Program-made: the position numbers and the translations under genes
The notes under the pieces: generated by a model
Database searches by the model: none
Told to the model about the DNA's origin: nothing
What the model saw: only the letters and a program-made list of their open reading frames with translations
Origin: Ostreococcus lucimarinus
Taxonomy: Eukaryota
DNA: 64,000 bases
Assembly: GCA_000092065.1 (NCBI GenBank)
Contig: CP000589.1
Reading direction: 5' to 3' (one strand)
Shown here: positions 8,370 through 54,117 of the stretch, piece by piece
How the letters are laid out: every line of letters begins with the position of its first letter
Numbering within the stretch: the stretch's first letter is position 1

Positions 8370-8513
8370 CGCGCGCGTCGCGCGCGCGCGTGCCGCGCGC
8401 GCGCGTCGACGAATGTCGCCGACACTCGCCGACGCGACGTTCGGCGTCGCGCGCGCGCGCGCGCGCCGCGGCGACGCCGACGCGCTCGCGGCGACGCGCG
8501 ACCGTCGCGCGCG

Positions 8514-11610: not shown

Positions 11611-11618
11611 GATGGATG

Positions 11619-11626
11619 CGAAACCC
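11619..11626. promoter_or_regulatory. Telo-box AAACCCTA in the CLPR/CTL bidirectional promoter.
   Basis: It is an exact match to the plant telo-box (the complement of the TTTAGGG telomere unit), about 10 nt upstream of the CLPR ATG. Confidence 0.3.
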
Positions 11627-11915
11627 TACGCCCGTTCGCCGCGTCTTCGCGCGTCTTCGCGCGTCTTCGTCACCGCGTTCGCGCGTCTTCGTCACCGCGG
11701 TCGCGCGTTCGCGTCGCGCGTCCTCGTCTCGCGCGCGCTCGACCGTCGCGCGCGCGCGTCGCGGTGTGCGCGCCGGACGCGCGCGCGCGGGGGTCGCGGC
11801 GAGACCGACGACACGAAGCGACAACACGGACCATCCGAGCGCCCGATGGTGTTGGCGCGCGCGCGACCGCGACGGCGCGCCGGACGCGCGCGCGCGACGG
11901 CGACGCGACCGCGGC

Positions 11916-18960: not shown

Positions 18961-19161
18961 GCGCGCCGTTCTGGCGCCGTGGGTGTTGCGGGGCGGTCGC
19001 AGACGCCGACGCGCGGCGACGCGCGGCGACGCGCGCGCGCTCGAGCGCGCGAATCGCGCGAATCGCGCGCGGGCGTTCGAGCGCGCATGCGCGGACTCGC
19101 GCGCGCGCTCGCGCTCGCGGACGCGCGCGCGTGGACGCGCGGACGCGCGCGCGCGGGACGG

Positions 19162-21028: not shown

Positions 21029-21760
21029 TCAATCAGCCTTCAAGAATCCCTTGGCGTCCAAATACTCGATGATTTTGTGCGCCATGTCTCGCGGCGGCGC
21101 CAAGACGCCGTCCTCCTTGGCGACTTCCATTTCAATCTCCGCGTTCACCGGTTCTTCGTACGGATCGTCGATGCCGGTGAATCCCTTAATCTTACCCGCC
21201 CGAGCAGCCTTGTAAAGCCCCTTCGGGTCGCGTTCCTCGCACACGCTCAACGGAATCTTCATGTACACCTCGACGAAGCGGTCGCCGACGCGTTCCCGCA
21301 CCGCCAACCGATCCTTCTTATACGGCGAAATGAAGCTCACGAGCGTGATCATCCCGCTATCCGCGTACAGTTTCGAAACCTCACCGATCCTGCGAATGTT
21401 CTCCTCTCGATCGGCCGCGGTGAACCCCAAATTCGAGTTCAACCCGTGTCGAATGTTGTCGCCGTCGAGCACCTGCGCGATCTTCCCTCGCTTGAACAGT
21501 TCGTGCTCGAGCGTGTACGCCACCGTGGACTTCCCCGATCCCGACAGGCCGGTGAACCAAAGCACGCACCCTCGCTGCCCGAGCGCCCTCTCGCGCGTCT
21601 CGCGATCGACCGCGCCCTCGTGCCACTTGATGTTCGTCGACTCGCCCACCTTGTACGCGTCGACCGCGCGCGCGCGCGCGTGCGTCATCGTCGCCGGCGT
21701 CGCGAGCGCGCGCGCGTCGACCGCGCGCCGCGCGAGTTCCCTCGCTCCGCGGCGAAGCAT
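21029..21760 (-). CDS. APK: Adenylyl-sulfate (APS) kinase.
   Basis: The kinase core is GCVLWFTGLSGSGKSTVA...DGDNIRHGLN...ISPYKKDR, with an Ala- and Arg-rich presequence. The start is chosen at the ATG at 21760. An alternative ATG at 21688 would give an N-terminus lacking the presequence. Confidence 0.85.
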   Translation of the reverse strand: MLRRGARELARRAVDARALATPATMTHARARAVDAYKVGESTNIKWHEGAVDRETRERALGQRGCVLWFTGLSGSGKSTVAYTLEHELFKRGKIAQVLDGDNIRHGLNSNLGFTAADREENIRRIGEVSKLYADSGMITLVSFISPYKKDRLAVRERVGDRFVEVYMKIPLSVCEERDPKGLYKAARAGKIKGFTGIDDPYEEPVNAEIEMEVAKEDGVLAPPRDMAHKIIEYLDAKGFLKAD

Positions 21761-21828
21761 GCGTCGCGCGTCGTGCGCGCGCGCGCGTGTGCGCGCGCGC
21801 GCGGGTCGACCGCGAAACCCTCGCGCGC

Positions 21829-21895
21829 GGGTCGATCGACGCGCGATCGATCGCGCGTCGATCGCGATCGACCCTCGCGCGAGTTTCGATCGCCG
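21829..21895. promoter_or_regulatory. CGATCG palindrome cluster with an adjacent AAACCCT telo-box-like motif, in the APK/VDAC bidirectional promoter.
   Basis: The cluster reads gggtcgatcgacgcgcgatcgatcgcgcgtcgatcgcgatcgaccc. The motif gaaaccctc sits at about 21815. Confidence 0.3.
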
Positions 21896-22055
21896 AAATT
21901 CGAACCTCGCCCGCGCGGGTCGAAAAAGCGCGGGAGAGGGGAACCGTCGCTGAGTCAGTGCCTTTTCACGAAGTCGCATGCGATTGCGCGCATCGCGACG
22001 CGCGACGCGACACACGGCGACGCGCGCGCTCGTAAACGACGCGCACCGACGCGAA

Positions 22056-22886
22056 ATGACGTACTTTGAAGCGCTCGGCGAAGCGCTGCGCGATTTGCTC
22101 GAACCCGCGGCGGTGGGGGCGACGAAGGTGACGACGAAGGGACCGAAGAATTCGGCGCTCGCGGACGCGGACGTGACCGTGGACGTGAACGGCGCGGCGA
22201 GAGCGATCGCGGTGGACGCGAAGCAAACGTTTGAACTGCCGATCGATGGGGTGAAGTTGGTGGCGAAGGCGAATCATCACGGGGATCTGAGCGCGGACGT
22301 GGTGGCGAGCGGATTGGCGCTGAGCGGACTCGACGTGGCGGTGGAGGGATTGGCGCGCGATACCGCGAACGCGACGATCGGGGCGAAGCTCGCGATCGAT
22401 TCCGTCGGGATCACGGCTGATTCGGCGTTGGCGGGCGGTGATATCGTCGCGAGCGCGTGCTACGCGTTCGATGATAACACCGCGCTCGGGGCCAAGGCGA
22501 CGGTGTCGCCCTCGAGCGGGGGTCTGGCCGACTGGACGCTCGCGGCCCAGCGACGAGATGGACCGACGACTTTGAGCGCGGCGTTGAGTGATGGTGGGAA
22601 TACCGTCGCTTTGGGCGTCACGAGCGAGCTCGACGCGAAGACGACCGCGGGTTTGGAAGCCAAGCTCGCGATGGGCGGAGAACGCAATTCGTTGAGCTAC
22701 GCGCTCGGCGTGAGCAAGACGCTCCAATCCGGCGACACCATGCGTGTCGTGCACTCGAATCACGGTGACACGGACGTGACATACACCACGACGCTCTGCG
22801 AAGGCGCCATCGCCACGGGGTGCTTGCGTATGGCGTCCAAGGGGCATCACTACAAGACTGGCTTCTCCGTCGCGATGGGGCAATAA
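22056..22886 (+). CDS. Putative mitochondrial outer-membrane porin (VDAC-like beta-barrel), 276 aa.
   Basis: The length is typical of VDAC. An amphipathic N-terminal helix (MTYFEALGEALRDLL) is followed by alternating hydrophobic beta-strand patterns throughout. The C-terminus ends ...YKTGFSVAMGQ. This call rests on architecture and size, not on a verified signature. Confidence 0.5.
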   Translation: MTYFEALGEALRDLLEPAAVGATKVTTKGPKNSALADADVTVDVNGAARAIAVDAKQTFELPIDGVKLVAKANHHGDLSADVVASGLALSGLDVAVEGLARDTANATIGAKLAIDSVGITADSALAGGDIVASACYAFDDNTALGAKATVSPSSGGLADWTLAAQRRDGPTTLSAALSDGGNTVALGVTSELDAKTTAGLEAKLAMGGERNSLSYALGVSKTLQSGDTMRVVHSNHGDTDVTYTTTLCEGAIATGCLRMASKGHHYKTGFSVAMGQ

Positions 22887-23091: not shown

Positions 23092-25281
23092 TCACTTTTG
23101 CAGCGGATTATACGCCATGGCGCTTCGGGATACATTCCGCGTGAGCGTCTGCACGTCTCTCGAGTGCTCCAGCTCGTGCGCCTTTTCCATGATGCTCTCC
23201 ATCGTGGCGTCGGCGTCGGGGAACGATGTGGAAAATCCGAGCATGGAGACGCGATGTTGCTCGTCGGAATTTCTCGGCGAATCCGAGCCAGCTTGAAGCG
23301 AGAGTTGCTTGAGACTCGCGAAAGTATCACTGTCGCCTCGCGCCGATTTATCACGCACCATTGTACTGAATCGATTTATGACTTCGAACACGTTTCGCAC
23401 GCTTTGCCGTCGCGCGCTCTTTTGATTCGACTCGTCAGGCGCCGAAGTCGACAAGACGTCCTTCTCTGCGGCTTCAACTTCGACCAGCGCTGCGTCGACG
23501 ACTTTTGCGGCTTCGAGATGCCGCTCCTCGGCGATCGCGTAGTCTTTGTTCAGCTGTGCGATTTCGTCGTCGAGTGAGCTCGCCCAAGTGTGAGCCTCGT
23601 CGGACATGTTCTTCGTGGCGTTGTATTGCTCTTCGTACACCTTGACCGCAGCGTGCGCCATCTTGCACGCAATCGTCGCTCGTTGCGCCTCCATATAGCA
23701 CACGCGCTCGTCGTCCGCGGCAGCATAATACTCCTCTATGCCGTTTTTGATTTCCTCATCGACGTCATCCAGCAAAGTACGCGTCGACGCCTCGAGCGCG
23801 CGCATCTCAGCCATGCACTGACTCGTGGCGTCATTTAACGAGGCTTCGGCGCGATCGCGTGCGGTGAGCGCGGCGGCGGCCTCGATGTCGAACACTTTAT
23901 CGATCTTCTTCGGTGACTTCCGCCCCACCGCGTCGATAGCGTTCATGAGCGCCTCTTCGAGCCTTGACGTCATCTCGTCGTACGCGGTGAACATAGTCTT
24001 CGTGACGTTGGACGCCCGCAGGGCAAACTCCTTCTGCCTAAACTCCAACAAATCAACGCTCGAGTCCATGGACGTTCGCACGGCTTGACGAAACGTCGTT
24101 AAAATACCCTTTTTGCGGTCGCGCGCGTTCTGCAACGCCGTCCGCGCGGCGTGGATTCGCGCCGAAGCCTCCGCCATGTTCACGTCGGCGGCGAGACGCT
24201 TGTCTTCCAACACTCGCGTGTTCTCAAACTCGCGATCGCGCGTCTCTTCGGCGGCTATAAACGTAGCCCGAGCGCGCGTCGCAGACGCCAGTCGTCTACC
24301 CTTCTTTTCTTTAATCTTCGTCAAGTGTTCACCGATATCCGAATGCGCCCGCTTCGTCGACTTGAGCTCCCAGAGCGCCACCGTGTGCGCGAGCTTCTTC
24401 ACCACGAGCGTCGCTTTGTGCGCCGCAGCGCGCGCATCGCCTTCTCTAGCTCGCGCGACGGTCACCATTACATCCCATGGCATCAATGTCGCCGTCTTCA
24501 CGCGTGGCGGCGTCGATACAACCGCACCGTCGTCCTCGCCGCCGTCTCCGCCGCTCGACCCCGCGCGCGGCTCGTCGTGTTCGCCTTCGCTCTTCGCGCG
24601 CGCCTCCGCTTCCGCCTCTCGCGTCGCCGCTTCCGCCTCGATCACGAGCTCACGCAGCCGCTCTTCCTCCACGCGCGCCGCCGCGAGTCTGCTCTCCATC
24701 ACGCGCGCCGCGGCCAACCGCGTATCGACGCCAATCGACAGAAACCAGTGCGCCTCCTCCTCGTGCTCCACCACCGGCACCGAGCTCGTGAAGCTTCCCC
24801 GTCGTTCGTGCGTCGGCATCCCGTAAATCGTCCCTCCGCCGACCTCGCGCCCGGAAGAATCGCTCTCGAATCCATTCCCGTGCGTCGTCGTCGCGCCGTC
24901 GTCGTCCCGTTCGCCGCCGCCGCCGCCGCCGCCGCTCGCCACCGCGCGTCCGCCGAACAGCCGTCCCCGCCATCCCTCCCCGTGTTCCTCCCCCTCGTCG
25001 TCGCTCAGTCCCGCGAACTTCACCAGCGACACCTTTCGCGTCATTCCTCGCTCCCGTCCCTCCAGATCGCGCTCGCTCCCGCACGGCGTCGTCGCCGCGC
25101 TCGACGCCGCCGTCCCGGTCGAGTGCGAATCGCGCGCGCTCGCCAATTCGCCCGCGATCGACGACGATTTCAGGATCGATCGCGCCGGCAGCGCGTGCGG
25201 GCCCGGCGGCGCGCGCTTCGTCGACGGCGCGCCCGCGCGCGCGCCGTCGCGGTCGATCGCGCGCGCGCACGCCGCGCCCAT
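23092..25281 (-). CDS. Large coiled-coil protein with a disordered Ser/Gly/Glu-rich N-terminus. It is hypothetical.
   Basis: About 430 residues of the central and C-terminal regions form a heptad-rich helix. The ORF-track start at 25335 is a GTG. The first ATG is at 25281. Confidence 0.45.
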   Translation of the reverse strand: MGAACARAIDRDGARAGAPSTKRAPPGPHALPARSILKSSSIAGELASARDSHSTGTAASSAATTPCGSERDLEGRERGMTRKVSLVKFAGLSDDEGEEHGEGWRGRLFGGRAVASGGGGGGGERDDDGATTTHGNGFESDSSGREVGGGTIYGMPTHERRGSFTSSVPVVEHEEEAHWFLSIGVDTRLAAARVMESRLAAARVEEERLRELVIEAEAATREAEAEARAKSEGEHDEPRAGSSGGDGGEDDGAVVSTPPRVKTATLMPWDVMVTVARAREGDARAAAHKATLVVKKLAHTVALWELKSTKRAHSDIGEHLTKIKEKKGRRLASATRARATFIAAEETRDREFENTRVLEDKRLAADVNMAEASARIHAARTALQNARDRKKGILTTFRQAVRTSMDSSVDLLEFRQKEFALRASNVTKTMFTAYDEMTSRLEEALMNAIDAVGRKSPKKIDKVFDIEAAAALTARDRAEASLNDATSQCMAEMRALEASTRTLLDDVDEEIKNGIEEYYAAADDERVCYMEAQRATIACKMAHAAVKVYEEQYNATKNMSDEAHTWASSLDDEIAQLNKDYAIAEERHLEAAKVVDAALVEVEAAEKDVLSTSAPDESNQKSARRQSVRNVFEVINRFSTMVRDKSARGDSDTFASLKQLSLQAGSDSPRNSDEQHRVSMLGFSTSFPDADATMESIMEKAHELEHSRDVQTLTRNVSRSAMAYNPLQK

Positions 25282-25729
25282 GATCGCGATCGGCGCGACG
25301 CGATGTGCCGCCGCGCGAACGATTCGACCGCACACCGATGCGCGCCGTCGGCGCGACGAGCGAGCGCGGCGTCGAGCGCGCGACGACCGCGACGCGCGCG
25401 ACGACGCGCGCGACGACGCGCGCGGGCATGCGTCGAGCGCGGGCGCTCGCGCGCGCGCTCGAACGGATTCGGTTGACGACGAGACGACGAGACGTGTGGA
25501 CGCGCGGCGTCGCGGACGGCGATGGCGCGGGCGCGCGGGACGGCGCGAGCGTCGCGACGAGCGATTCGCTCGACGCGCGCGCGGTCGTGGTGCGTGCGAG
25601 CGCGCGAGGGCGTCGAGGGCGAGGGATCTCTGGTGAACGCGCGCGCGGTTTGATTTTTAAAAGATTGGACGGAGGAAAGACGGGCGACGGGCGAGCGATG
25701 GCGGACTGACGACGACGACGCGCGCGCGA

Positions 25730-28700
25730 ATGATGACGCAGGATCGATTGCGCGCGGGGCTGGCGTACGAGATGAGCAATGGGTGCGCGAACGCGAAGGG
25801 GAAGGCGTTCGACGATTTTCAGAGCTTTCTCACGGCGTCGCTTCGGGAGTTGGAGCGATCGCACGCGTCGCCGATGCTCGCGCACATGGTGCGGGATTCG
25901 ACGGTGTATGGGAATTTGGACGTCGATCGACGACAGCGGTTGCTGCAGAATATGTCGACGGCGCTGCCTGGGGTGATTCAGCGCGGCGAAACGGCGCCGC
26001 CGGCGAGGTCGCCGCAGACGCCGCGAGCGTGGTCGCCGCCGAGCGCTGCGCCGGTGGTCGAGCGCGCGGGGGCGACGTCGGTAGTTTCATCGAACATGGG
26101 TGGTGTCGCGAGCGGGTCGAAGCGGACTCCGGCGGTGGCGGCTGCGAAGACGAAGGAGGACGCGCCGAAGACGAAGGCGCCGACGGTGTCGCGAGATTCG
26201 TCCGAGTTCCCCACCATTATTGTTTTCGATTTAGAGACCACCGGGTTGAGCAAGGAGAAGAGTCGAATCATCGAGCTCGCGGCGCAGTCGCTCTCGGATC
26301 CGTCCGCGGCGTTCAGCACGCTCGTGAATCCCGGTCGGTTTACGATTCCAGCCGCCATCACCTCGCTCACGGGCATCACCAACAGCATGGTGAGCGCTTC
26401 GAACGTGCCGTCGTTCGCGATGGCGGCCGAGCAGTTGGAAGCATTTATTGAAAGCGCCCGCCAGTCGCGCCCGGGGGCGCCGATCTTGCTTGTCGCGCAC
26501 AACGCGCGTCAGTTTGACGCGGCTTTTATGCAGCATGAATACCGTCGTCTTGGGCGTGAGTTGCCGTCGAGTTGGAGATTCTGTGATACCTTGCCGCTCG
26601 CGCGCGCGCTGCTGCGTCCGGAAGGATTGGCAAAGTTCAACATGGATGTCCTACGGGAATACTACGGCGTGTCGATCGATGGTGAAGACACACAAATGCA
26701 CCGCGCAGGGACGGACGCTCGAGTGTTGGCTGAAATCCTCAACAAACTACTCGAGCATCCCAATGCGAAGGACGACGAGCTTGGGTGCTTGGAGAAGTAC
26801 TCATTTTCGCTCGGCGATCCGGGCGCGGGGAGTTTGAAGCGAGCGACCGCGGATGCCAAGTCTGAGAGCGAACGCTCGTCCTACGCGGGCGGCGCGCCGG
26901 GCTGGGGCGGCGGCGGTACAGTGAACTTGAGCGACGGCGAAGAAGCCGACGTCGGTGGTGGATGGGCCGCGGTCGATGAATTCGCAAACGAAGAAAATAT
27001 GGAATTTGAGAGTGACTCGAGCTCGATGTCGTCAAACGATGTGCCTCTTCGAGGTATGCAGAAGCCGTTTTGGGCCGCCGAGGATCCCATCAACGGTATT
27101 CTCCCCGAAACTGTCGACTTTCAGAAACTCGCCGAAATCGCCGCTAAGACGGACACCTCCGAGCTTCGTCTCGACCTAGAGCGATGGAAAGAAACATCGA
27201 TCGAAGCGCTCAAGGATAAAGTCCCGAAGTCGACTATGAAGGCGCTGAAAGCCGAAGGCATCAACACCATCGAAGCCGTATTGCGCAACTGCCCGCGCAA
27301 GTATCAAGAGTACAGCGTTTGGAACAAGTCTCTCGCACAAGGCACACAAGTGACCCTCACTGGGACAGTTCGTTCGATGCAAGTGCGCGATTACATGCGT
27401 GGGCGTGCGATCCCGAACACGGTGTTGGTCGAAGTCGACGTACGCGAGGACGAACTCACGCCGACAGAGGACGATCCGTGGGGCGCAAATAAGCCTCGGT
27501 GCAAAGTTAAAGTGTGGGACTACATTTCGAAGGATGCTCGCGAAGAAATGCCGATCGGTGCTCGGGTGAGTGTCCGCGGCACTTTGGGTACGGGCGATAG
27601 GAACTGCCAGTTCAGCGTGGACGGCGGTCGTGTCGTTCCGATTGCCGCAGATGCGCCGGTATTTGCGTCCGACTCGTCGGAAATTGTCGCCACGTACGCC
27701 AAGCGTGGAGCGATGAGCAATGTTGAGTGGCATCGCGCGGTGAACGCATCGATGGACATTTTCCTAGCGAAGCTTCCCGCCGATCCCATGGAGGTATCGA
27801 TGGGCCGCGATAATCCATTGCTCGCCGAACTCGGATTGCTTTCGCATTCGGAGGCGGTGAAGAATATTCACAGGCCACGAAACGTCGAGGCTGTGGCGCA
27901 AGCGCGAGAGCGATTGGCGTTTGAAGAATTGGTTTTATTACAAGTGGCGCTTCTACAAGAACGCAGTCGTTTACAGGCGCTTCCCGTGTCCGAGTCGACC
28001 GAAGGCGTGTGCATTGTCGGCACTGCTCTCACGGACGAGTTGCGCAGCGAGTTACCGTTTGCGCTTACGCGATCTCAAGAGTCTTCACTCGAAGAAATTT
28101 TGAGCGATATGGCCGGGCCGGCACCGATGTTGCGCCTACTCCAAGGTGATGTGGGGTGCGGTAAGACTGTCGTTGCCGCCATGGCGCTCCTCGCGGCGGT
28201 CGGTGCAGGACATCAAGGCGCGTTCATGGCGCCGACTGAAGTACTCGCCACGCAGCACCACCGCGTGCTCACGGATTTGCTTTCACAAATGCGAGATCCA
28301 CCGAAAGTGGCGTTACTCACTGGTTCAACGAAAACTGCTGAACGTGCGCAAATTCTCGAGGATTTGAATGACGGAAAGATTGGAATTATTGTTGGCACGC
28401 ACGCTTTGATTCACGAAAAAGTTGTATTCAGCTCACTCGGCATCGCCGTCGTCGATGAACAGCATCGTTTTGGCGTGGAGCAACGCGCTGGATTATTGGC
28501 AAAAGGTAAGCTCCCACCGCACATGCTTACCATGAGCGCAACGCCGATTCCGCGCACACTCGCGATGACAAAGTTTGGCGAGATGGCTTTGAGCGTCATC
28601 GACGAGAAACCCGCTGGCCGTTTGCCAATCATCACAACGGTGTGCGGTGTCGACGAGCACTCGCAAGCCTACGATTCGATGTGCGAAGAAGTGAGCCGCG

Positions 28701-29419
28701 GCGGGCAGGCTTACGTCATCTTGCGTCTCGTGAACGAATCCGGATCGTCTCGCATGTCTGAAGTGAAGGGCGCGGAGGAGGAATACGCTCGTCTCGTGAG
28801 CAAGTATCCAAATGTACGATTCGGACTCTTGCACGGGCAGTTGGGCGCGGACGAAAAAGCCGCGGCGCTAGAAAAGTTTAGTTCTGGAGAAACTCAAGCC
28901 CTGGTCGCTACGTCAGTCGTTGAAGTTGGTGTGGACGTGCCGAATGCGAGCGTCATCATCATCGAAGACGCAGACGGTTTCGGTCTCGCCGCGCTTCACC
29001 AGCTTCGAGGTCGTGTCGGACGCGGCGCACGTCAGTCGAAGTGCTTCTTGTTACACTCTCCTGGCGCAGGGGAGAACGCGGAGTTGAAGGGAGATCGCGC
29101 GCGCGACCGTCTTCGTGTGCTCGAGCAATCAAACAACGGCTTCCGAATTGCCGAGAGCGATTTACAGCTCCGCGGCGCTGGCGAGCTCTTCGGCACGAAA
29201 CAAAGCGGCCAGCAGGTGAACCTGTTCCACGCATCGATGTCAACAGATCTCTATTTACTCGAAGCCGCTCGCAAGGCGGCGGCAGAGATGATTTCACGCG
29301 CCTCCTTGCAACAGGAACCACTCCCGGCGCCGGTGACGGTCGCTTTAGAAACGCGGCCCGCGTTGATCCTCGACAACGCCATCATCTCTGGCGGTGCTCA
29401 AGCAGCGGCGACGAATTGA
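25730..29419 (+). CDS. RECG: Fusion protein: an N-terminal DEDDh 3'-5' exonuclease domain (DnaQ/RNase T-like) joined to a full-length RecG DNA helicase.
   Basis: The exonuclease motifs are Exo I FDLETTG, Exo II LVAHNARQFD and Exo III HRAGTDARVL, at about residues 170-345. The RecG part has a wedge-like OB region, then GDVGCGKT, VVDEQHRFG, MSATPIPRT, the C-terminal helicase lobe and QLRGRVGRG. It forms a single uninterrupted 1229-codon ORF starting at an ATG. Confidence 0.8.
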   Translation: MMTQDRLRAGLAYEMSNGCANAKGKAFDDFQSFLTASLRELERSHASPMLAHMVRDSTVYGNLDVDRRQRLLQNMSTALPGVIQRGETAPPARSPQTPRAWSPPSAAPVVERAGATSVVSSNMGGVASGSKRTPAVAAAKTKEDAPKTKAPTVSRDSSEFPTIIVFDLETTGLSKEKSRIIELAAQSLSDPSAAFSTLVNPGRFTIPAAITSLTGITNSMVSASNVPSFAMAAEQLEAFIESARQSRPGAPILLVAHNARQFDAAFMQHEYRRLGRELPSSWRFCDTLPLARALLRPEGLAKFNMDVLREYYGVSIDGEDTQMHRAGTDARVLAEILNKLLEHPNAKDDELGCLEKYSFSLGDPGAGSLKRATADAKSESERSSYAGGAPGWGGGGTVNLSDGEEADVGGGWAAVDEFANEENMEFESDSSSMSSNDVPLRGMQKPFWAAEDPINGILPETVDFQKLAEIAAKTDTSELRLDLERWKETSIEALKDKVPKSTMKALKAEGINTIEAVLRNCPRKYQEYSVWNKSLAQGTQVTLTGTVRSMQVRDYMRGRAIPNTVLVEVDVREDELTPTEDDPWGANKPRCKVKVWDYISKDAREEMPIGARVSVRGTLGTGDRNCQFSVDGGRVVPIAADAPVFASDSSEIVATYAKRGAMSNVEWHRAVNASMDIFLAKLPADPMEVSMGRDNPLLAELGLLSHSEAVKNIHRPRNVEAVAQARERLAFEELVLLQVALLQERSRLQALPVSESTEGVCIVGTALTDELRSELPFALTRSQESSLEEILSDMAGPAPMLRLLQGDVGCGKTVVAAMALLAAVGAGHQGAFMAPTEVLATQHHRVLTDLLSQMRDPPKVALLTGSTKTAERAQILEDLNDGKIGIIVGTHALIHEKVVFSSLGIAVVDEQHRFGVEQRAGLLAKGKLPPHMLTMSATPIPRTLAMTKFGEMALSVIDEKPAGRLPIITTVCGVDEHSQAYDSMCEEVSRGGQAYVILRLVNESGSSRMSEVKGAEEEYARLVSKYPNVRFGLLHGQLGADEKAAALEKFSSGETQALVATSVVEVGVDVPNASVIIIEDADGFGLAALHQLRGRVGRGARQSKCFLLHSPGAGENAELKGDRARDRLRVLEQSNNGFRIAESDLQLRGAGELFGTKQSGQQVNLFHASMSTDLYLLEAARKAAAEMISRASLQQEPLPAPVTVALETRPALILDNAIISGGAQAAATN

Positions 29420-30897: not shown

Positions 30898-31959
30898 TTA
30901 CTTGACTTGTCTGATTTTGCACTCGCGCACGAGCGGAAATTTTGTTTTGATGGCTTGCGCGATGGAGAAGGCGAGCGCTTTCGGTCCTCTAAACTTCAAC
31001 ACGCACACGCCCCTTTCGAGCGACTCCACGCTCGCCTCGCCCCCGTAGCTCGCGATAGACTTTCGAAGCTTTTCCAAATGCCCCTCGATCGTCTCGATCG
31101 TCATCTCTTCCAATTCACCGCTCACGTCGACGACTTCTTCCACGGCGTCGCCGAATTTTTGCTTTAAAAGTTTTTCGATCCCCCCCTTCATCGTCGCCGA
31201 CGACGACGCGCACGTCCCGCACGCCCCATTCAACCGCACGACGATGATCTTGCCTTCAATCTTCACGAGCTCGACGTTACCACCGTCGGCGACCAAATAC
31301 GGTCGCACCTCGTCGAGCGCTTCGTCCACGTTTTCCATCGTCGGCGGCAACTTCGGCGACTCGTCCACCGCGTCCGCGTTCTCCTCTTTCGCCGCCTCCG
31401 CGAACGGACTCACCACGCTCGCGCTCGCATCCGCGCCCTCGATTCCCGTCGCGCTCACCTCCGCCTCCGCCGTCCCGCTCGCCGCCCCGTCCTCCGCGTC
31501 CCGCGCCCCGTTCGCCCCCCCCGTCTCCCCCTCTCCCAGCGCCTCCCGCCACCGTCGCGCCTCCGCGCGCAGCGTCGCTCGCGTCGCCATCGCCGCGTTC
31601 CGAAACGCCATCACGCGCGCCGTGCGCGCGCCCTCGCCGTCCCGCGCTCGCGCCGCCCGCAGCGCCGTCGCCACGTTCGTCGCGTAGTCCACCCCCGTGC
31701 ACGTCCCTCGCGCGTCGAACGTCGCGAACACCCCCGCCGGCGCGTCGCGCGCGTACAGTTCCAGCCACGCGTCGACGCTCGCGCGCGCCGTGCCGTCCTC
31801 GGCGAGCGCTCGCGGCGCGCGCGCTCGCGCCGTCGCGCGCCGACGGTCCGCGCGCGCGCGCACGCGCCGCGCCGCGACGCGCGCGTCGCGCGCGCGCGTC
31901 GGCGCGCGCGCGGGACCGCGCGACGCGACGCGCGCGTCGGCGCCTCGCGTCGCGCGCAT
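30898..31959 (-). CDS. NFU: Chloroplast-type NFU (NifU-like) iron-sulfur scaffold protein with an extended N-terminal region.
   Basis: The NFU domain with CxxC (LNGACGTCASSS) is followed by a degenerate second NFU domain, as in plant NFU1-3. About 200 residues precede the NFU domain. The ORF-track start at 32163 is a TTG. The first ATG is at 31959. Confidence 0.75.
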   Translation of the reverse strand: MRATRGADARVASRGPARAPTRARDARVAARRVRARADRRRATARARAPRALAEDGTARASVDAWLELYARDAPAGVFATFDARGTCTGVDYATNVATALRAARARDGEGARTARVMAFRNAAMATRATLRAEARRWREALGEGETGGANGARDAEDGAASGTAEAEVSATGIEGADASASVVSPFAEAAKEENADAVDESPKLPPTMENVDEALDEVRPYLVADGGNVELVKIEGKIIVVRLNGACGTCASSSATMKGGIEKLLKQKFGDAVEEVVDVSGELEEMTIETIEGHLEKLRKSIASYGGEASVESLERGVCVLKFRGPKALAFSIAQAIKTKFPLVRECKIRQVK

Positions 31960-32270
31960 CGTCGGCGCGTCGCGCGGCGTCGCGCGGCGTCGGCGTGTGC
32001 GGCGCCATCGCGCGACGCGAGTCTTCGACGCGCGAGCGCGCGCGAGCGAGCGCGAGCGCGCGAGCGACGCGCGAGCGAACGCGCGAGCGAACGCGCGAGA
32101 CGCCGCGGCGCCGACGCGACGCGCGCGCGCGAGAGGGCGACGACGCGAGAGGCGCGAAAACAAGATCGATCGCGAACGTTCGATCGACGACGCGCGCGCG
32201 GCGAGGGCTCGACGCTGAACACGAGGCGAAACGCGCGAAAGCGTCGTGAAACGCGCGCGCGCGACGCGAG

Positions 32271-33932
32271 ATGTCGGCGATGGATCTGCAGGGCGTCGGG
32301 CGAGAGACGCGGAAGGCGGCGGCGGAGGACGATCGCGCGGAGGACGCGCCGGCGACGAACGCGGAGGACGAGAGCGAGCTCGATATTTGGCGCGCGGCGG
32401 CGTATGGGAACGTCGACGCGATGAAACGGATGATCGATGCGGACGAAGGGTGCGTGAACGCGCCGGATGGGTCGGGATTCCGCGCGCTGCAGTGGGCGGC
32501 GCTGAATAATAGAGTCGCGGCGGCGACGTTGTTGCTCGAACGCGGGAGTTCGATAAACGCGGGGGATAACGATGGACAGACGGCGCTGCATTGGGCGTGC
32601 GTGCGAGGGTCGCTGCCGTGCGCGGAGTTGCTGCTGCGGAAAGGAGCGGAGTTGAACGCGGCGGATTCGCGGGGATACGTGCCGCTGCACGTCGCGGCGC
32701 AGTACGGTCACACCGGGATGATTTATCACTTTAAAATGCGATGGAACATCGATGTTGACGTCACCGATCACGACGGTCGAACGGCGCTGCACTGGGCGGC
32801 GTACAAAGGGTTTCCCGATCCCGTCAAGTTGTTGGTGTGCATGGACGCGGACGTGTACCGGGCGGATAAGGAAGGCTGCACCGCGCTGCACTGGGCCGCC
32901 ATCAAGGGCAAGAGCGAAGCCGCGCATTTAATAGTCCGCGCCGGCGGTTTGAACGCCATGACGGCGGTCGACGTCGACGGAAACACGGCGGAGGCGCTCG
33001 CGCTCGAGAAAGGCCATCACCTCCTGGCGAATTTCCTCGCCAAGGAGCAGCGCGCGCTTTTGAGGCGCGATAATTTTTGGACGCAAAAAGGCTTGGCTGT
33101 CGCGTGCCTCGGCCTCATCGTCGGATTGATGCTGATGTTCTCGCATTACGTCATCTTCGCCGAAGGCGTCGCCACGATGGACGTGACGTTGTCGTTTTGG
33201 TCGCTCGTCAGCCTCGCCTCGGCGAGCTGCGGATTGTACTACATGAAGCGCGTCTCGCAAGCCGACCCGGGGGTCGTCACCGCCTCTATTTTATCCTCCA
33301 TTCGCCGAGGCGCGCGACCGAGCTCGGCGGCGCATGACGTGGACGAGCGATTAAATCACGCCGAGCTTTGGGCCGGAAACTGGAACCAGCTCTGCGTGAC
33401 GTGCAAATTCGTCAAGCCGTTCGGCACGAAGCACTGCGCGGTGCGCGACAAGTGCGTGGCGCGTTTCGATCACTACTGTCCGTGGATGGGGAACACGATC
33501 GGGAAGAGAAATCACAGAGACTTCGTCATCTTTCTCATTCTCGAGTCTCTCGCCATGGCGATCGCCTTTTGCGTCGCCATCGCGCGTTTCAACGAAGAGT
33601 CTCCGACGGAGCGCTTTCGCTCCACCGGGGGCATCGCCTGCTTCGCCGTCTTCGACGCCCTCACTCTCCTCCCCGTCGCCTTGCTCACCGTCGCCCAGCT
33701 CAGTCAAGCCGCCCGGAACATCACCACCAACGAGCTCTCCAACGTCCATCGCTACGCCTACCTCAAATCCGCCGAGGGCAGGTTCGCCAATCCGTTCGAC
33801 CGCGGCTCGTTCGCGCGCAACCTTCGCGCGTTTTTCCTCGTCGGCAAGAAGGAGCCTCTGATCGACGACGTCGCCGCGCGCGGCGTCGCCGTCGGGTTCG
33901 ACGAGCGCCACCCCTTAGATCGCATCGCTTGA
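32271..33932 (+). CDS. Ankyrin-repeat DHHC-type protein S-acyltransferase (Akr1/ZDHHC17/TIP1-like).
   Basis: About six ANK repeats (GxTALHWAA...) are followed by TM helices and a DHHC-CRD: CVTCKFVKPFGTKHCAVRDKCVARFDHYCPWMGNTIG. Confidence 0.85.
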   Translation: MSAMDLQGVGRETRKAAAEDDRAEDAPATNAEDESELDIWRAAAYGNVDAMKRMIDADEGCVNAPDGSGFRALQWAALNNRVAAATLLLERGSSINAGDNDGQTALHWACVRGSLPCAELLLRKGAELNAADSRGYVPLHVAAQYGHTGMIYHFKMRWNIDVDVTDHDGRTALHWAAYKGFPDPVKLLVCMDADVYRADKEGCTALHWAAIKGKSEAAHLIVRAGGLNAMTAVDVDGNTAEALALEKGHHLLANFLAKEQRALLRRDNFWTQKGLAVACLGLIVGLMLMFSHYVIFAEGVATMDVTLSFWSLVSLASASCGLYYMKRVSQADPGVVTASILSSIRRGARPSSAAHDVDERLNHAELWAGNWNQLCVTCKFVKPFGTKHCAVRDKCVARFDHYCPWMGNTIGKRNHRDFVIFLILESLAMAIAFCVAIARFNEESPTERFRSTGGIACFAVFDALTLLPVALLTVAQLSQAARNITTNELSNVHRYAYLKSAEGRFANPFDRGSFARNLRAFFLVGKKEPLIDDVAARGVAVGFDERHPLDRIA

Positions 33933-34873
33933 TTCGTAATCAACGTTTCACAGTCGTCCCGCGCGTCCTCGTCGATCCGCCTCGTCGATCCGTCGTCGCC
34001 TCGCGCGCTCGCCTGGGTGCCCACGCCAACGGTCGTGGCATTTTCCACATCGATCGTCATCGCGCGACGCACCGTCGCGTCGACGCCGCGCCGATCGCGC
34101 GCCGCGCGCGACGCGAACGATCGACTCGAGCGCGACGCGCGACGCGCGCGCGCGACGCCGAACGAACGACGAACGACGAACGATCGAACGATCGAACGAT
34201 CGCTCGCGGTTTGAACAGATTTGAAACCGAAACGACTCGACGACGGCGATGCCCAACGCGACGACGCGCGGGACGACGCGGACGATCGCGGGACGCGCGA
34301 TGACGCGCGCGACGACGCGGTGCGTGACGCGCGCGCCGCCGAAACCGCGGACGCGGACGGGGAGCGACCGCGCGGTGCGAAGCGCGCCGGCGCCGGTGAG
34401 CGCGGCGCAGCGAAGAAAACCGCGAGGACGGCGATCGCGCGATGCGACGGACGACGATCGCGCGGACGATGGGAACGGTGGCGATGGTGGCGATTGGTTC
34501 GGCGGCGGCGGCGGCGGCGGCGACGGGGGCGACGGCGACGACGGCGAGGACGAGGACGCGTTTCGAATGGACGCCGACGAGTTGACGGCGTTCGAGCGCG
34601 CGTTGTTCTCGGAGATTGAGGTCATGGACGCGCACGCGTTGTACGCGTGGCAGAGCGCGTGCGCGGTGACGCTCGTCGGGTGCGTGCAGCACGTGATCGA
34701 CGTCGCCGCGGCGAGAGCGCGCGGGTTCGGCGACGCCGTCGCCTTCGCGTGAGCGATCCGAGACGACGAACCGGTCGTCCGCGCCGACGCGCGCTGTACG
34801 CTACGAAGCCATCACGTGGAGTGTTGTGCATTATCTTTTTCCGATCCACGGTGTTGTATATCAGTTGTAAACG

Positions 34874-38571: not shown

Positions 38572-41340
38572 CTAAATTCCATAGTAGCCGTTGAAGTCGA
38601 GTCGCGATAACAGACTCGCAACGTTGGTGTCGACGTCGCCGGCGTCGTTCAGAGCGTTTAATAAATCGCCGAGGAAGTGCCGGAACTGCGACCGCGTATC
38701 GCTCGTCACGGCTTCGATCTCTTCCTCCAATGCGACCAATCTATCCGCCGTCATAGCGTCCATGCTATTCTCCTTCAACCGTTCGATGGTGTCTGCGAAA
38801 CGCTGGCTGTCCCGGGCAAAGCGCAAGCACGCCGCTCGCGCGCGCTCCAAACGCTTCAAAATCTTGGGCCAGAACAACATCGCATCCTTCATGCAGGCCT
38901 CCAAAAACGCATCGTGTCCGGCGATCAGTTCATCCACGGACTGCGCGTCGTCCACGCGCGCGATCATCCTATCCCAATGAGGCTCGATGACCTCATTCGT
39001 GATGTAGTACAAATAGTTTTGCAAAAAGTTCAACATTCGCTGCGTGAGCGTGTGGGCCTGGGCGAACATGCGACCGAGTTGCGCGCCGCGCATGACTTGC
39101 AGACGCTGCCAACCCGCACAAAGTTCGCGTTCGGCGCACTTGAAATTGAACAGATGTCTGAAAAGAATTTGATACTTTGTCACGGCACGACGGTTGAGCA
39201 CGACGCTCGCCGGCCAAGGCGTGTCGTAATCGAGCACGAAGGCATCGAATCCAGAAAGCTCGTCCCCGTCACCGGTGGCTTTCGAAGGAGTCACAGCGGC
39301 AGAGTCGTCATCATCAATGCTGGAAAGTTGTCTCGATAGACCGTGACCGTCGATAGAGCATAACAAGTCGTCGCCGTGGTGGTCGGTCGCCGTGCTGGAC
39401 GACTTCACGGCGATATCCAAAAGCGTTTGAAGCTTGGGCAGACGAATGTCATCTGCGTCCTTTTCCAACTCAGACGCCGCGGTGTCTAGGAAATGCACGA
39501 GATAATCTCCTCGAGCGAGCAAGAAGTACATCTTCATGCTCATCAGTCGTGATTTCAACTCGCCGTCTTCCCACATGATTTGTAACAATTTGCGCGAAGC
39601 GTGCTCAAATCTATCGTCAATGCGATCCGCGTACTTCCCCGTGCCGATGATCATGTTCGGCCCGAAGTACATCTTACCGAGCCCGTCTCTCGGCTTCGCT
39701 GGGAGCTCGGCAATCGCGGACACCTTGGTCTCACGCACCGCGTTCAAATAGCGCCCCGTGGTGAGTATTTTTTGCGCAAGTTGTTTCCCTATGAATTGCG
39801 GAATCTCCTCGCGAAGGGAATAGCGTTTCGTCCAATACGCCGAGTTATAATCATCGGCCAGAGACGTTTTCTTCATCTCACGTTGCTCAACGATCAAAAA
39901 CTCGTCGTAAGGATCGTCGACTTGTCCATCGTAAACCCACAGCTCGATGGCGCGGCTGTACGGCGCCGAAGTCGCTTTGCTCAAACGCTGCACCAAAGCC
40001 GACACCGCACCATCGCCAGCGTGTTCGCAGCCTTCTCGGTGCAACAGATTGAGTATGCTCGCACCTTTCAAATGGTACGCTCTGCTCGCCACGCTCGCCA
40101 TGAGGCGCAAAGCCGGCGCGGCGGGTTGACAATAAAACCACGCCGCCTGAAGTGAAAGTGAGCCGATGTTGCGTTGGTGCTCGAGCTGCACGATCAACGT
40201 GTGCCAATCGTTCAGCAAATCGCGCATTTCCGCCGCTAACGCGTGGGATACGTAGCCATGCTTGAACTCATGCCGAGATTCGATGAAGGCACGCACGGTC
40301 GCCGCGTCCGAGCACAACGGAAGCATATTCTTAACCAACGCCGCGAGCGGCGCCTCGAGCCCCAGCTCAACCTCAAACTTTACTCGCGTCAGTCGATCGT
40401 CTTTGACCACGACACCCGAGCTCGTCTCGTCGTCTGTGCCCTTCCACGCGCTGATGTATCGCCCGTCGACGCCCATCATCGCGTATAACAAATCATCTAA
40501 AACCAGCAACTCTTGCTCGGCGGTGCCGTAATCGCTCAACGCCTTGACGTTTCTGTCTTGCTCCGCCCCACTCCCGAGATGCGCGCCCGTGAGAAACGGC
40601 CGCTTATAGTTCCAGTCGGGTAACTTTGGACCATCGGCGAGCTCGGTTGGTCGCGACACTATCGTGCGCTCTGGCTTACCGAACAATCCGCCCGAGCGTC
40701 TCTGCGAGCTTCCCACCGTCATGCGTCCGAAATCGCCAGCCAAGTTCGCGCTCACCCCCGACGCGCTCGCATCGCGCGAGCTCACGGAGCTCGTCATATT
40801 CTTTCCGAGCGCGGCGTAACGCTCTGGCGTCCCTAATCCACCCGGAGACGACACGAACGACGGCTCATCGCTCTCCGGCGTATCGCTCGCGCGTCGTCGT
40901 CCGCTCGCCGACGTCCCCATCCTCCCCGCCTCCATCTCCGCCTCCGCCGCGCGCGCCCCCGCCTCCGACACCGCAAACGCCAGCTCCTCATCGCTCGCGA
41001 TCTTCGCCATCACCGCCAAATACCGATCCAACTCCTCCACTCGCAGCGCTCGCAGCCGGTCGCACTCCGCCGCGAACGCCTCCGCGCGCGCCCCACTCCT
41101 CTCGCTCAGCACCCTCCGCGACTGCGCGATCGCCACCTTCGTCACGTCGTACTTCGATATCATCTTCCCCAGCATCGCCGTCGACGCCTGCGCGAGCGAT
41201 TCCGTGAACCGGTGCGTCGCGTCCAGCCCGAGCGCCTCGGTCAGCGCGCGCACCGCGCGTTCCAGCGTCTCCCGCGTCCGCGCGTCGTCGTCCGCGCCCT
41301 CGTCGTCGTCCGCGCCGTCGTCCATCGTCGCGCGACGCAT
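38572..41340 (-). CDS. GCP: Gamma-tubulin complex component (GCP2/GCP3, Spc97/Spc98 family).
   Basis: The GRIP1/GRIP2 regions are present, including LVLDDLLYAMMGVDGRYI and EMRDLLNDWHTLIVQLEHQ, over a full-length GCP architecture of about 920 aa. Confidence 0.85.
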   Translation of the reverse strand: MRRATMDDGADDDEGADDDARTRETLERAVRALTEALGLDATHRFTESLAQASTAMLGKMISKYDVTKVAIAQSRRVLSERSGARAEAFAAECDRLRALRVEELDRYLAVMAKIASDEELAFAVSEAGARAAEAEMEAGRMGTSASGRRRASDTPESDEPSFVSSPGGLGTPERYAALGKNMTSSVSSRDASASGVSANLAGDFGRMTVGSSQRRSGGLFGKPERTIVSRPTELADGPKLPDWNYKRPFLTGAHLGSGAEQDRNVKALSDYGTAEQELLVLDDLLYAMMGVDGRYISAWKGTDDETSSGVVVKDDRLTRVKFEVELGLEAPLAALVKNMLPLCSDAATVRAFIESRHEFKHGYVSHALAAEMRDLLNDWHTLIVQLEHQRNIGSLSLQAAWFYCQPAAPALRLMASVASRAYHLKGASILNLLHREGCEHAGDGAVSALVQRLSKATSAPYSRAIELWVYDGQVDDPYDEFLIVEQREMKKTSLADDYNSAYWTKRYSLREEIPQFIGKQLAQKILTTGRYLNAVRETKVSAIAELPAKPRDGLGKMYFGPNMIIGTGKYADRIDDRFEHASRKLLQIMWEDGELKSRLMSMKMYFLLARGDYLVHFLDTAASELEKDADDIRLPKLQTLLDIAVKSSSTATDHHGDDLLCSIDGHGLSRQLSSIDDDDSAAVTPSKATGDGDELSGFDAFVLDYDTPWPASVVLNRRAVTKYQILFRHLFNFKCAERELCAGWQRLQVMRGAQLGRMFAQAHTLTQRMLNFLQNYLYYITNEVIEPHWDRMIARVDDAQSVDELIAGHDAFLEACMKDAMLFWPKILKRLERARAACLRFARDSQRFADTIERLKENSMDAMTADRLVALEEEIEAVTSDTRSQFRHFLGDLLNALNDAGDVDTNVASLLSRLDFNGYYGI

Positions 41341-41440
41341 CGCTCGCCGCGCGCGTCGCCGGCGCCGTCGCCCGCGCCGCGGCGCTCGAGTGCCGCGCGC
41401 GCGTCAACGGATTTCGAATTTTCCGACGCCGCGCGCGCGC

Positions 41441-41530
41441 GTCGATCGATCGCGCGATCGATCGCGCGCCGATCGTCCATCGATGGACCGTCGATCGACG
41501 CCGTCGCGATCGATCGATCGAACGGCGGTC
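41441..41530. promoter_or_regulatory. Cluster of four perfect palindromes built on CGATCG/ATCGAT cores in the GCP/RPL18 bidirectional promoter.
   Basis: The palindromes are cgatcgatcgcgcgatcgatcg, ccatcgatgg, gtcgatcgac and cgatcgatcgatcg. All are self-complementary and lie 110-200 bp upstream of the RPL18 ATG. Confidence 0.35.
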
Positions 41531-41638
41531 GCGCGGGGCGAGATTTCGCCAAACGGCGGCGAATGCGAACGACGCCGTCGCGCGCGCGTCGCGCGCGCGC
41601 GCCGTCTCTCTTCGACGCGTCGAACCGACGCCGCGACC

Positions 41639-42700
41639 ATGGTGCGTGCGCGCGCGATCGACGACGGCGCGGTGATGCGTTCGATGCGCGGGGTCGCGAC
41701 GCGCGGGCGCGCGACGCGCGACGGGCGCGCGCGACGGGCGCGACGCGAGAAGCGCGATGCGAGACGCGTGGGGTTTCGGCGCGGCGACGCGGGGCGTCGA
41801 TGGCGACGACGGCGGGCGATGGCGCGCGCCGGGGAGGGGGGAGAGGGTGGAGATGAATACGTGGGATCGATCGCGCGACGCGCGGGGACGCGGGCGGCGG
41901 GGGGGGCGACGGGGGGGGCGAGGGATGGGCGATCGAGCGATCGGCGCGACTGACGGGACGACGCGATGTTTCGACGACGTAGGGTATCGATCTTAAGGCT
42001 GGTGGCCGTAACAAGAAGACCAATCGCACGGCGCCGAAGTCTGACAATGTGTACTTGAAGCTCTTGGTGAAGGTGCGCGAACGACGCGACGGAGGGACGG
42101 GGGAAGGATGGGGACGACGGCGAGGAAAGCCCTAGCCGGGAGGTCGCGCGCGACGACGCGCGAAACGCGAAGGCGAGGCGATGATGATGCGATTGGAGAG
42201 ACTGACGAATGATGATGCGCTCGCGATGACAGCTTTACCGATTTTTGGCTCGCCGTACGGATTCCAAGTTCAACGACACCGTGCTCAAGCGCTTGTTCAT
42301 GTCGAAGACGAACCGCCCGCCGTTGTCCTTGTCCAAGGTGGCCAAGTTCATGAAGGGTAAGGAGGGCAAGGTTGCGGCGATCGTGGGGACGGTGACCGAT
42401 GACGTGCGTCTCCACGACGTGCCGGCGTTGAAGGTGTGCGCGCTTCGTTTCACCGAAACCGCGCGCGCGCGTATCATCAAGGCGGGCGGACAGTGCATGA
42501 CGTTCGACCAGCTCGCGCTCTCCGCGCCGACGGGTGAAGGCGTCGTGCTCTTGCGAGGTCCGAAGAACTCGCGCGAGGCAGTCAAGCACTTCGGCGCGCC
42601 GGGTGTTCCGGGCTCCCACGCCAAGCCGTACGTCCGCGCCAAGGGCCGCAAGTTCGAGAAGGCTCGCGGTCGACGCGCCAGCCGCGGTTACAAGGCATAA
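41639..42700 (+). CDS. RPL18: 60S ribosomal protein L18 (eL18). I propose a three-exon model: join(41639..41641, 41983..42072, 42233..42700).
   Basis: Exon 3 encodes [30 protein letters not shown]...[10 protein letters not shown]. Exon 2 encodes [30 protein letters not shown] and is flanked by a ...cgtag| acceptor and an AAG|gtgcgc donor. Exon 1 is the ATG alone, followed by a GTGCGT donor. The joined product is collinear with eL18 from its N-terminus (MGIDL...). Confidence 0.85.
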
Positions 42701-42837: not shown

Positions 42838-43050
42838 CGTAGCGTACAACTGGTGCTCATCTGGACGTGATCTCGACCGACTGCGACGAGTCGTCCTCCT
42901 CGGCGACTCGTCGCAGTCGGTGTACGTGATCTCGACCGACTGCGACGAGTCGTCCTCCTCGGCGACTCGTCGCAGTAGCGTACAACTGGTGCTCATCTGG
43001 ACGTGATCTCGACCGACTGCGACGAGTCGTCCTCCTCGGCGTCGGTGTAG
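42838..43050. repeat. Complex tandem repeat straddling the MEX1 stop codon. It has units of about 26 nt (A) and about 51 nt (B), arranged A-B-B-A-B'.
   Basis: agcgtacaactggtgctcatctggac occurs twice. gtgatctcgaccgactgcgacgagtcgtcctcctcggcgactcgtcgcagt occurs three times. One B copy encodes the C-terminal EEDDSSQSVEIT. Confidence 0.8.
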
Positions 43051-44285: not shown

Positions 44286-44759
44286 CGCCGCCGTCGCGCT
44301 CTCCCGCGCCGTCGTCGTCGTCGTCGTCGATCGCGCGTCGAAAGATCCAATCGTCGATCGTCGCGTCGGTCGCTTTTTCGACCGTCGACGACGATCGCGC
44401 GCCGATGGGCGTTCGTATCGCGTCTGTACGAGACGCGCGACGCGCGCGCGCGACGCGCCGGCGCGCGCGATCGGTCGGTCGCCGCGATCGGCGCGCGGCG
44501 ACCGACCGACCGCGCGCGCGCGTCGCGTGACTGTTTGCGCACACGGCGCGTCGACCGCGCGTCGCGCCGCGCGCGAAAATCTCGTCGCGCGGCGCCAGAC
44601 CCTGACGTTGGATGTGTTTACCTCGACGTCGCGGCGCGTCTCGCGGTGCGTATTTCGGACGACGTTTGCGGTATCGATCGATCGCGGGCGATCGACGTCG
44701 CGCTGTCGGGCGATCGCGCGCGCGCGTCGCGAGACGGCGACGCGACGACGTCGCGCGCG

Positions 44760-53647: not shown

Positions 53648-54117
53648 CCGCGCCTTCGCTTCGTTTCCGACGCTTTAGCCACGCGCAGAATATATTTTCG
53701 CCGCGCGCCCGCGCCTCGTTCGCGCTTTCGGTCGTCGTCGTCGCTTCGCGCGTTCGCCTTCGCGTCGCGCTCGCCTTCGCGTCGCCGCGCCTCTATGCGC
53801 AAACAGTCACGACCGAACGACTTTCGCGCGCGCGACCGCGATCCATCGCCCGATCGCGTTCGATCGCGGTCGCCACTCGCGCGCGCGAGATTCGTCGCGC
53901 ACGAACGCCGCGAACGCTCGCCTCGCGAGGGCGCGCGGCGGTAAAAGTCGCGCGCGCCGATCGCGACGCGCGCGCTCGACGGCGACCGCGCGACGGAGTC
54001 GACGACGCGCGCGACGCATCGTTCGAACGGTCGAAGGATTCGAAGGAATCGCGGCGGCGCGCGAAACCGAAGCGCGAGGGCGCGAGGCGGCGAGGAGACG
54101 ACGCGAGCGCGCTGGGA

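Follow-up and report, generated by a model that had tools for sequence, protein, structure and literature searches.

The window, that is the whole stretch of 64,000 nt analysed here at its full length, is nuclear DNA from an Ostreococcus lineage common in marine waters. Proteins with 100% identity to its APS kinase were found in no other source than metagenome assemblies from the sea, with the APK gene indexed in 424 blocks of the collection, and the nearest named relative of this protein is that of Ostreococcus tauri (88%). Over the whole window the DNA has 63% GC, an extreme excess of CpG (o/e 1.70) and a depletion of TpA. A codon-usage gene map places 44 tightly packed genes in it, with 53.9 kb of coding sequence (CDS) in total. 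All genes share a strong 5' gradient of GC and CpG: the first 250 bp of CDS have 71.6% GC and 235 CpG/kb, and the CDS beyond them 60.5% GC and 143 CpG/kb. The words CGGCCG, GGCC and CCGG fall far short of dinucleotide expectation, in CDS as well as upstream of genes (o/e 0.08-0.56); CGATCG is not depleted. A Rfam scan of the whole window at gathering thresholds gave no match and, as a consequence, an RNA element was dropped from the candidate explanations of the features described below.

The divergent genes for APS kinase (APK) and for VDAC, a eukaryotic porin, are separated by 296 bp, between their start codons at 21760 (minus strand) and 22057 (plus strand), the latter being matched by a 276-aa gene call in metagenome contigs L001-L003. 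The gene names that a preliminary description of this DNA had proposed around the sites it reported were confirmed by Pfam (Table 1). The APK/VDAC region contains six copies of CGATCG, where shuffling it with dinucleotides preserved leads one to expect 1.37 (P<0.0005). The "nested palindrome" that had been described there is real and consists of a perfect 32-bp palindrome within 19-nt inverted arms, which are offset by one extra CGATCG. The longest palindrome arm in the region is 16 nt, where shuffles give a mean of 10.2 and a maximum of 15. As single-stranded DNA, the array folds with -38.1 kcal/mol, vs -26.6±2.6 in shuffles (z = -4.4). Directly beside the array, ~30 nt of alternating purines and pyrimidines (21773-21805, GTGCGCGCGCGCGCGTGTGCGCGCGCGCGCG) have Z-DNA-forming potential.

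Table 1. Genes, CGATCG arrays and associated features. Positions are those of the window unless a contig is named.
Feature	Position	Strand	Details
APS kinase gene, left flank of the array promoter	21029-21760	minus	Pfam APS_kinase, E = 1.8e-68; metagenome-contig gene calls agree
VDAC/eukaryotic porin gene, right flank	22057-22886	plus	Pfam Porin_3, 27.0 bits, just under the 28.4-bit gathering cut-off
RecG-like helicase gene	25730-29419	plus	Pfam
NifU (NFU) gene	30898-31959	minus	Pfam
Ankyrin-DHHC gene	32271-33932	plus	Pfam
Gamma-tubulin complex protein (GCP) gene	38572-41340	minus	Pfam
RPL18 exon 2	42299-42700	plus	Pfam
SET/Rubisco-LSMT gene	44760-46355	plus	Pfam
APK/VDAC array	21829-21895		six CGATCG at 21833, 21844, 21848, 21859, 21865 and 21887 (span 21833-21892)
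Perfect 32-bp palindrome, APK/VDAC	21833-21864		halves CGATCGACGCGCGATC and GATCGCGCGTCGATCG
Outer inverted repeat around the 32-bp palindrome	21820-21883		19-nt arms 21820-21838 and 21865-21883, 95% complementary
Coiled-coil/RecG promoter	25254-25292		two isolated CGATCG (25254, 25287); not above expectation
NFU/DHHC promoter	32165-32187		two CGATCG (32167, 32181) flanking CGAACGTTCG; quasi-palindrome
Conserved GTGGGCACC block	33990-34060; L018 7740-7760; L022 17490-17510
Array upstream of gene 34249-34752	34051-34202		six CGATCG, including (CGATCGAA)x3 at 34181-34202
GCP/RPL18 divergent-promoter array	41443-41520		nine CGATCG, including CGATCGATCG-CG-CGATCGATCG and (CGAT)3.5
MEX1-like/SET promoter, patch a	44328-44397		three CGATCG
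MEX1-like/SET promoter, patch b	44461-44519		palindrome, 26-nt arms 96% complementary; two CGATCG (44468, 44485) at its centre
MEX1-like/SET promoter, patch c	44675-44716		four CGATCG
Region upstream of gene 54118-55200	53851-53963		three CGATCG vs 2.3 expected; not significant
Array upstream of a 1521-aa gene	L010 15995-16088		five sites
Divergent-promoter array, FtsH-side gene/MTPAP-like gene	L010 19606-19716		12-13 sites in 110 bp

Similar sites had been reported in the NFU/DHHC, MEX1-like/SET and coiled-coil/RecG promoters, and all were found within a few bases of where they had been placed. For the coiled-coil/RecG promoter, the "single copy" at about 25250 is indeed present (25254) but it is accompanied by a second CGATCG at 25287. 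The NFU/DHHC pair is not significant when taken alone (2 vs 1.2 expected), and the palindrome of patch b in the MEX1-like/SET promoter was reached by no shuffle. Two arrays were absent from the preliminary description: the nine-site GCP/RPL18 array, in an intergenic region that holds 13 CGATCG in all (5.2 expected, P = 0.0015), and the six-site array at 34051-34202 (2.7 expected, P = 0.03). The promoters that had been called motif-free proved to be so, with no CGATCG in 8370-8513, 11611-11915, 18961-19086 or 59465-59645, and these promoters (MTR4/8514, CLPR/CTL, PQ-loop/MTHFS and HVA22/TPR) do carry other short tandem repeats, as stated. On the RPL18 side (41638-42298), an apparent intron starts directly after the start codon (ATG|GTGCGT at 41638) and itself contains four CGATCG. 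Past RPL18, the convergent intergenic DNA carries a perfect 59-bp tandem duplication (42865-42976; 1.9 copies, 100% identity), each copy of which holds a hairpin with 20-nt arms (accgactgcgacgagtcgtc...).

Across the window as a whole, CGATCG is not significantly enriched (139 occurrences vs 123±12 expected) and a signal emerges only when the DNA is split by compartment. In CDS the word occurs as often as expected (91 vs 88.4, o/e 0.98), without excess, and there is therefore no genome-wide bias. All non-coding DNA taken together contains 48 sites vs 31.1±4.9 expected (P = 0.0005), a density of 4.75/kb vs 1.69/kb in CDS, and four regions hold 34 of these 48 sites. The excess over composition in upstream intergenic DNA is only 1.5-1.7x, and none is seen in 3' (convergent) intergenic DNA (one CGATCG in 1.8 kb). 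The first 250 bp of CDS appear rich in CGATCG (3.5/kb) because of their 72% GC and the GC-CpG gradient; this enrichment was discarded, being explained by composition (37 vs 34.2, o/e 1.08). The strong signal is the clustering of CGATCG rather than its overall frequency. With a cluster defined as at least three CGATCG sites, all five clusters of the window lie in intergenic DNA that contains upstream sequence and none in the 53.9 kb of CDS, whereas Markov simulations (orders 1-3, trained on the same regions) predict 0.36-0.44 clusters and never produced a 9-site cluster in 2000 runs. The density of CGATCG peaks at -150 to -50 from the ATG. Arrays of (T)CGATCG(A) recur in about 6 of the ~40 upstream regions of the species, or roughly one promoter in six, and stand in CpG-rich, mostly bidirectional promoters, in the most CpG-dense part of the locus.

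This distribution was replicated in 15.5 kb of new sequence, obtained from metagenome DNA of the same species that extends past both ends of the window. Two further arrays were found there, both upstream of genes (Table 1), with 18 sites in 1.16 kb of upstream DNA (15.5/kb) vs 23 sites in 14.3 kb of CDS (1.6/kb, P = 2e-12). Direct duplications are present inside the larger array on contig L010. The preliminary description had held that the recurrence of CGATCG palindromes was not due to chance, and had named two findings that would speak against it: equal frequencies in coding and promoter DNA, or a trivial restriction-modification bias. Both are contradicted by the absence of excess in CDS and the presence of clusters upstream, and the claim itself is upheld by clusters that are non-random, restricted to upstream DNA and reproduced outside the window. 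On the same contig, a 4.9-kb segment (L010 11226-16145) is missing from the window at ~1427-1429 and encodes a 1521-aa ORF without Pfam domain, with its own five-site CGATCG array upstream; the segment reflects either a presence/absence polymorphism or an assembly difference.

We then characterised the repeat unit and the construction of the arrays. Of the CGNNCG words, CGATCG ranks second in upstream enrichment, behind CGCGCG (o/e 1.69 for CGATCG; 0.98, hence neutral, in CDS), and TCGATC is among the top enriched hexamers (47 vs 18.5). The base 5' of CGATCG is T in 44% of upstream sites vs 23% in background, a preference that is not seen in CDS and that arises in part because overlapping (CGAT)n sites force a preceding T. 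Upstream, 76% of GATC words stand in a CGATCG context, vs 37% in CDS. As a 4-mer, GATC shows no upstream excess over the dinucleotide model (o/e 1.01), a model that is partly circular because 26% of upstream ApT lies inside GATC. The core is CGATCG, often in the form TCGATCG(A) and often embedded as CGCG-CGATCGATCG-CGCG. Pure CGAT runs of at least 10 bp number five, the longest being 15 bp (3.5 full CGAT units), and spacers (CG, A or CGCG) stand between most sites in the arrays. In two arrays the palindromes exceed those of every shuffle (32 bp in APK/VDAC; arms of 26 nt at 44461-44519). An 18-mer palindrome, CGCGCGATCGATCGCGCG, occurs in three unrelated promoters (APK/VDAC, GCP/RPL18 and L010) whose flanks have no homology; it has matches in only 7 IMG/VR contigs, and a viral connection was not retained. 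The strings common to arrays (the longest are 11-25 nt) consist of the motif plus CG runs only. As the arrays have no common sequence beyond the motif, they must have independent origins and, for the same reason, are not copies of a mobile element; they were clearly assembled by local tandem and inverted micro-duplication.

How stable are these arrays? The APK/VDAC array is identical in 6 haplotypes, five of which are other contigs of the same species. Beyond the species, sites are kept only in the sister lineage at 95% amino-acid identity, which retains 3 of the 6, where ~10% would be expected per hexamer at the estimated ~70% identity of the APK/VDAC intergenic region. The array was not found in the orthologous promoters of O. 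tauri, L007 and L009. Similarly, the GCP/RPL18 array was not found in relatives at 75% amino-acid identity, and at the orthologous position (L022 9840-9875, and upstream of GCP in L017 and L019) (CGAA)6 or (CCGA)3 replaces (CGAT)n/CGATCG. Conversely, the CLPR/CTL promoter, array-free in the window, bears a small CGATCG cluster in another species. Between species, the arrays thus change rapidly. When other Ostreococcus species are pooled, CGATCG is enriched only ~1.2x. In the intergenic region 33933-34248, dispersed CGATCG sites are kept in three species, with 3-4 in the orthologous regions of the two others. There, in the DNA that precedes the gene at 34249, a GTGGGCACC block of site II/TCP-like type adjoins a CGATCG and is likewise kept in three Ostreococcus lineages.

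Within the species, polymorphism inside intergenic CGATCG is not reduced (6 variable positions in 258 bp, or 23/kb, vs 17/kb outside), a comparison that is underpowered. No repeat-number polymorphism was seen in 6-11 haplotypes, and the differences are substitutions or replacements. In five strains, CGATCGATCG is changed to CGATCGTTCG. In strain L014, patch a of the MEX1-like/SET promoter is conserved and the 59-bp palindrome of patch b is replaced by a ~65-bp inverted copy of nearby downstream promoter sequence, which points to template-switch or inverted-duplication mutations in these promoters. Compared to a generic cis-element, the arrays display upstream restriction and positional preference, but neither conservation at orthologous promoters beyond neutral expectation (with the exception of 33933-34248) nor reduced within-species polymorphism. 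Compared to an (ATCG)n microsatellite, they lack uninterrupted head-to-tail runs with unit-number polymorphism.

The reading that we favour, with reserve, is that the arrays are lineage-specific clusters of one duplicated promoter element, probably multi-copy sites for a putative GATC-recognising factor such as a GATA protein. They would act as multi-copy binding sites for this GATC-core factor, for which the best candidate would be a C2C2-GATA zinc-finger protein. In land plants (Arabidopsis, Marchantia), all tested C2C2-GATA factors bind GATC (PMC12142463), and the GATA family is present in Ostreococcus (PMC4827209). The plant GATC motif, YVGATCBR, acts through GATA factors in a dose-dependent manner, with ~50% more transcription per copy (Voichek et al. 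2024, PMC11525189), and does so from within ~500 bp downstream of the TSS; its effect diminishes in lycophytes and is slight or lacking in bryophytes, algae not having been examined (PMC11525189). By analogy with this motif, the copy number of CGATCG could tune promoter strength. The symmetry of an array may let it serve both genes of a divergent pair, and if slippage or template switching makes and removes arrays rapidly, this could account for their movement between promoters in sister species.

The likeness to the plant motif lies in the GATC core, in a degenerate palindromic 8-mer to which TCGATCGA conforms and in the presence of several copies close to gene starts. The V and B positions of YVGATCBR are filled in every CGATCG (V=C, B=G), and TCGATCGA, which occurs 8 times, fits the full consensus; TCGATCGC and GCGATCGA (20 times) fail at one outer position. 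In total, the full land-plant consensus fits no more than 11 of the 62 GATC found upstream (1.33/kb vs 0.52/kb in CDS). The arrays also differ from the plant motif in that their flanks are fixed as C...G (CGATCG), in that their sites are packed into 40-110-bp palindromic arrays instead of being scattered over 500 bp, and in that they are placed here relative to the ATG, upstream of which they stand, the plant motif being one that acts downstream of the TSS. The genes beside arrays (those for APS kinase, VDAC, gamma-tubulin complex protein, RPL18, SET/LSMT, FtsH, an MTPAP-like polymerase and several unknowns) have no evident common function, ~6 promoters being too few for a pattern test. The "shared cis-regulatory module" that had been proposed for these promoters is plausible but unproven, and weakened by the lack of conservation in other species; against it also speak the unreduced polymorphism, the strain without the central MEX1-like/SET patch, the many other micro-repeats of the same intergenic regions and the lack of a common gene function. 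A stronger version, in which the arrays would be true GATA sites and the dose-dependent GATC/GATA system, known only from vascular plants, would already operate in a prasinophyte, the units perhaps being 6mA/5mC substrates as well, seems unlikely to us.

A possible alternative, nearly as likely as the functional one, is that the arrays are a neutral by-product of mutation, in which unconstrained, CpG-saturated, low-complexity upstream DNA yields micro-duplications and CGATCG has no sequence-specific function. Slippage and template switching would then make both tandem and inverted repeats, (CGAT)n would be the commonest CGNN class of the lineage, and CGATCG would look special because its unit is self-complementary. 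In keeping with this, the density of non-triplet micro-repeats upstream is 4-10x that in CDS, tetranucleotide runs of other classes occur beside those of ATCG (ATCG 5, AACG 3, ACCG 3, AGCG 1), other CpG words (CGAACG, CGACGA, CGCGAG) cluster too, and the CGATCG-free promoters have tandem repeats of their own. Several of the observations above point the same way: the (CGAA)6 or (CCGA)3 at the place of the array in GCP/RPL18 orthologues, the array-less orthologous promoters of O. tauri and others, the unreduced variant density inside CGATCG sites, the inverted-duplication polymorphism of L014 together with the direct duplications of the L010 array, and the modest 1.5-1.7x enrichment over composition. 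Promoter microsatellites are a close known counterpart, with which the arrays share (CGAT)2.5-3.5 runs, 8-27-bp local duplications and the presence of other CGNN repeats at the same place in sister species. Unlike them, the runs here are very short, interrupted and without length polymorphism among haplotypes, and the repeats are inverted as well as direct. Pure runs of at most 3.5 units are shorter than slippage usually requires to be efficient, and most sites are spaced. Moreover, the neutral model does not predict that density peaks between -150 and -50 from the ATG, and it is also challenged by the 18-mer palindrome, which arose in three promoters without common flanks, by a T/A flank preference that is specific to intergenic DNA and by the above-expectation retention of sites in the sister lineage.

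It is less probable that the arrays are a chromatin or methylation platform, concentrating substrates for TSS-proximal 6mA (AMT1-type) or 5mC (DNMT5), or excluding nucleosomes; they would then mark the nucleosome-free centre of bidirectional promoters and not be classical activator sites. CGATCG does combine a symmetric ApT with two CpGs, 20% of upstream ApT lies inside CGATCG (4% in CDS, 1% in 3' intergenic DNA), the arrays occupy the most CpG-dense part of the locus, and the two palindromes that are significantly longer than in shuffles could form cruciforms. In Ostreococcus and Micromonas, 6mA is found at ApT in the first linkers downstream of the TSS and 5mC further into the gene (PMC12695648). 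Yet every gene expressed above a threshold carries 6mA (PMC12695648) and only a minority of promoters have arrays, which moreover peak upstream of the ATG and are not conserved between species. A MITE-like palindromic mobile element, or a genome-wide word bias of the restriction-modification or HIP1 type, would account for palindromic units that recur at many loci, but both are highly improbable and already largely refuted. The mobile element was rejected for lack of flank homology, terminal repeats and target-site duplications, the common strings being motif plus CG. The bias was rejected on the CDS ratio of 0.98; in addition, GCGATCGC is not a preferred or frequent octamer in intergenic DNA and the genome is here a eukaryotic nuclear one.

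Among known palindromic words, the cyanobacterial HIP1 octamer (GCGATCGC) has the same palindromic CGATCG core. HIP1 is over-represented genome-wide, genes included; the arrays differ from it by their lack of excess in CDS, by their preferred intergenic flank (T/A and not G/C) and by their eukaryotic host. The Drosophila DRE TATCGATA (DREF/BEAF-32) is likewise a palindromic CpG-containing promoter element. So is human TCTCGCGAGA, which occurs in housekeeping or bidirectional promoters (PMC2920758). Like the arrays, these animal elements are short self-complementary CG motifs, orientation-independent by symmetry, that lie in TATA-less, CpG-rich and often bidirectional promoters of broadly expressed genes. 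Unlike them, they have another sequence, belong to another kingdom with unrelated factors, and are usually found at 1-2 copies per promoter as opposed to the 6-13-copy arrays here. We would class the arrays as a lineage-specific variant of clusters of palindromic motifs close to promoters. In the searchable literature we found no prior link of CGATCG to promoters of Ostreococcus or Mamiellophyceae, the papers in which these terms co-occur being, from their titles and abstracts, not about promoter motifs.

No free-living eukaryotes are smaller than the Mamiellales, which are major primary producers of the sea, and very few of their promoter elements are known. A recurrent and easily recognised palindromic element would offer a handle on their 200-400-bp bidirectional promoters and could yield parts for promoter engineering in Ostreococcus. 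Should the arrays be true GATA sites, GATC/GATA tuning would exist here in a compact palindromic form that is suited to such promoters, and binding by a GATA factor would trace the plant GATC system back to the base of the green lineage. Should they be neutral, they would be a case in which micro-repeats driven by mutation mimic regulatory motifs in CpG-saturated genomes, which calls for caution in motif discovery. Other words that are possible further promoter elements were also observed in upstream intergenic regions (for example 21813-21820, 21897-21905, 41412-41425; L010 19640-19660): a telo-box-like AACCCT(A) is enriched there, and TTCGAA and the E2F-like words TTTCGCGC and TTTGGCGA adjoin several arrays.
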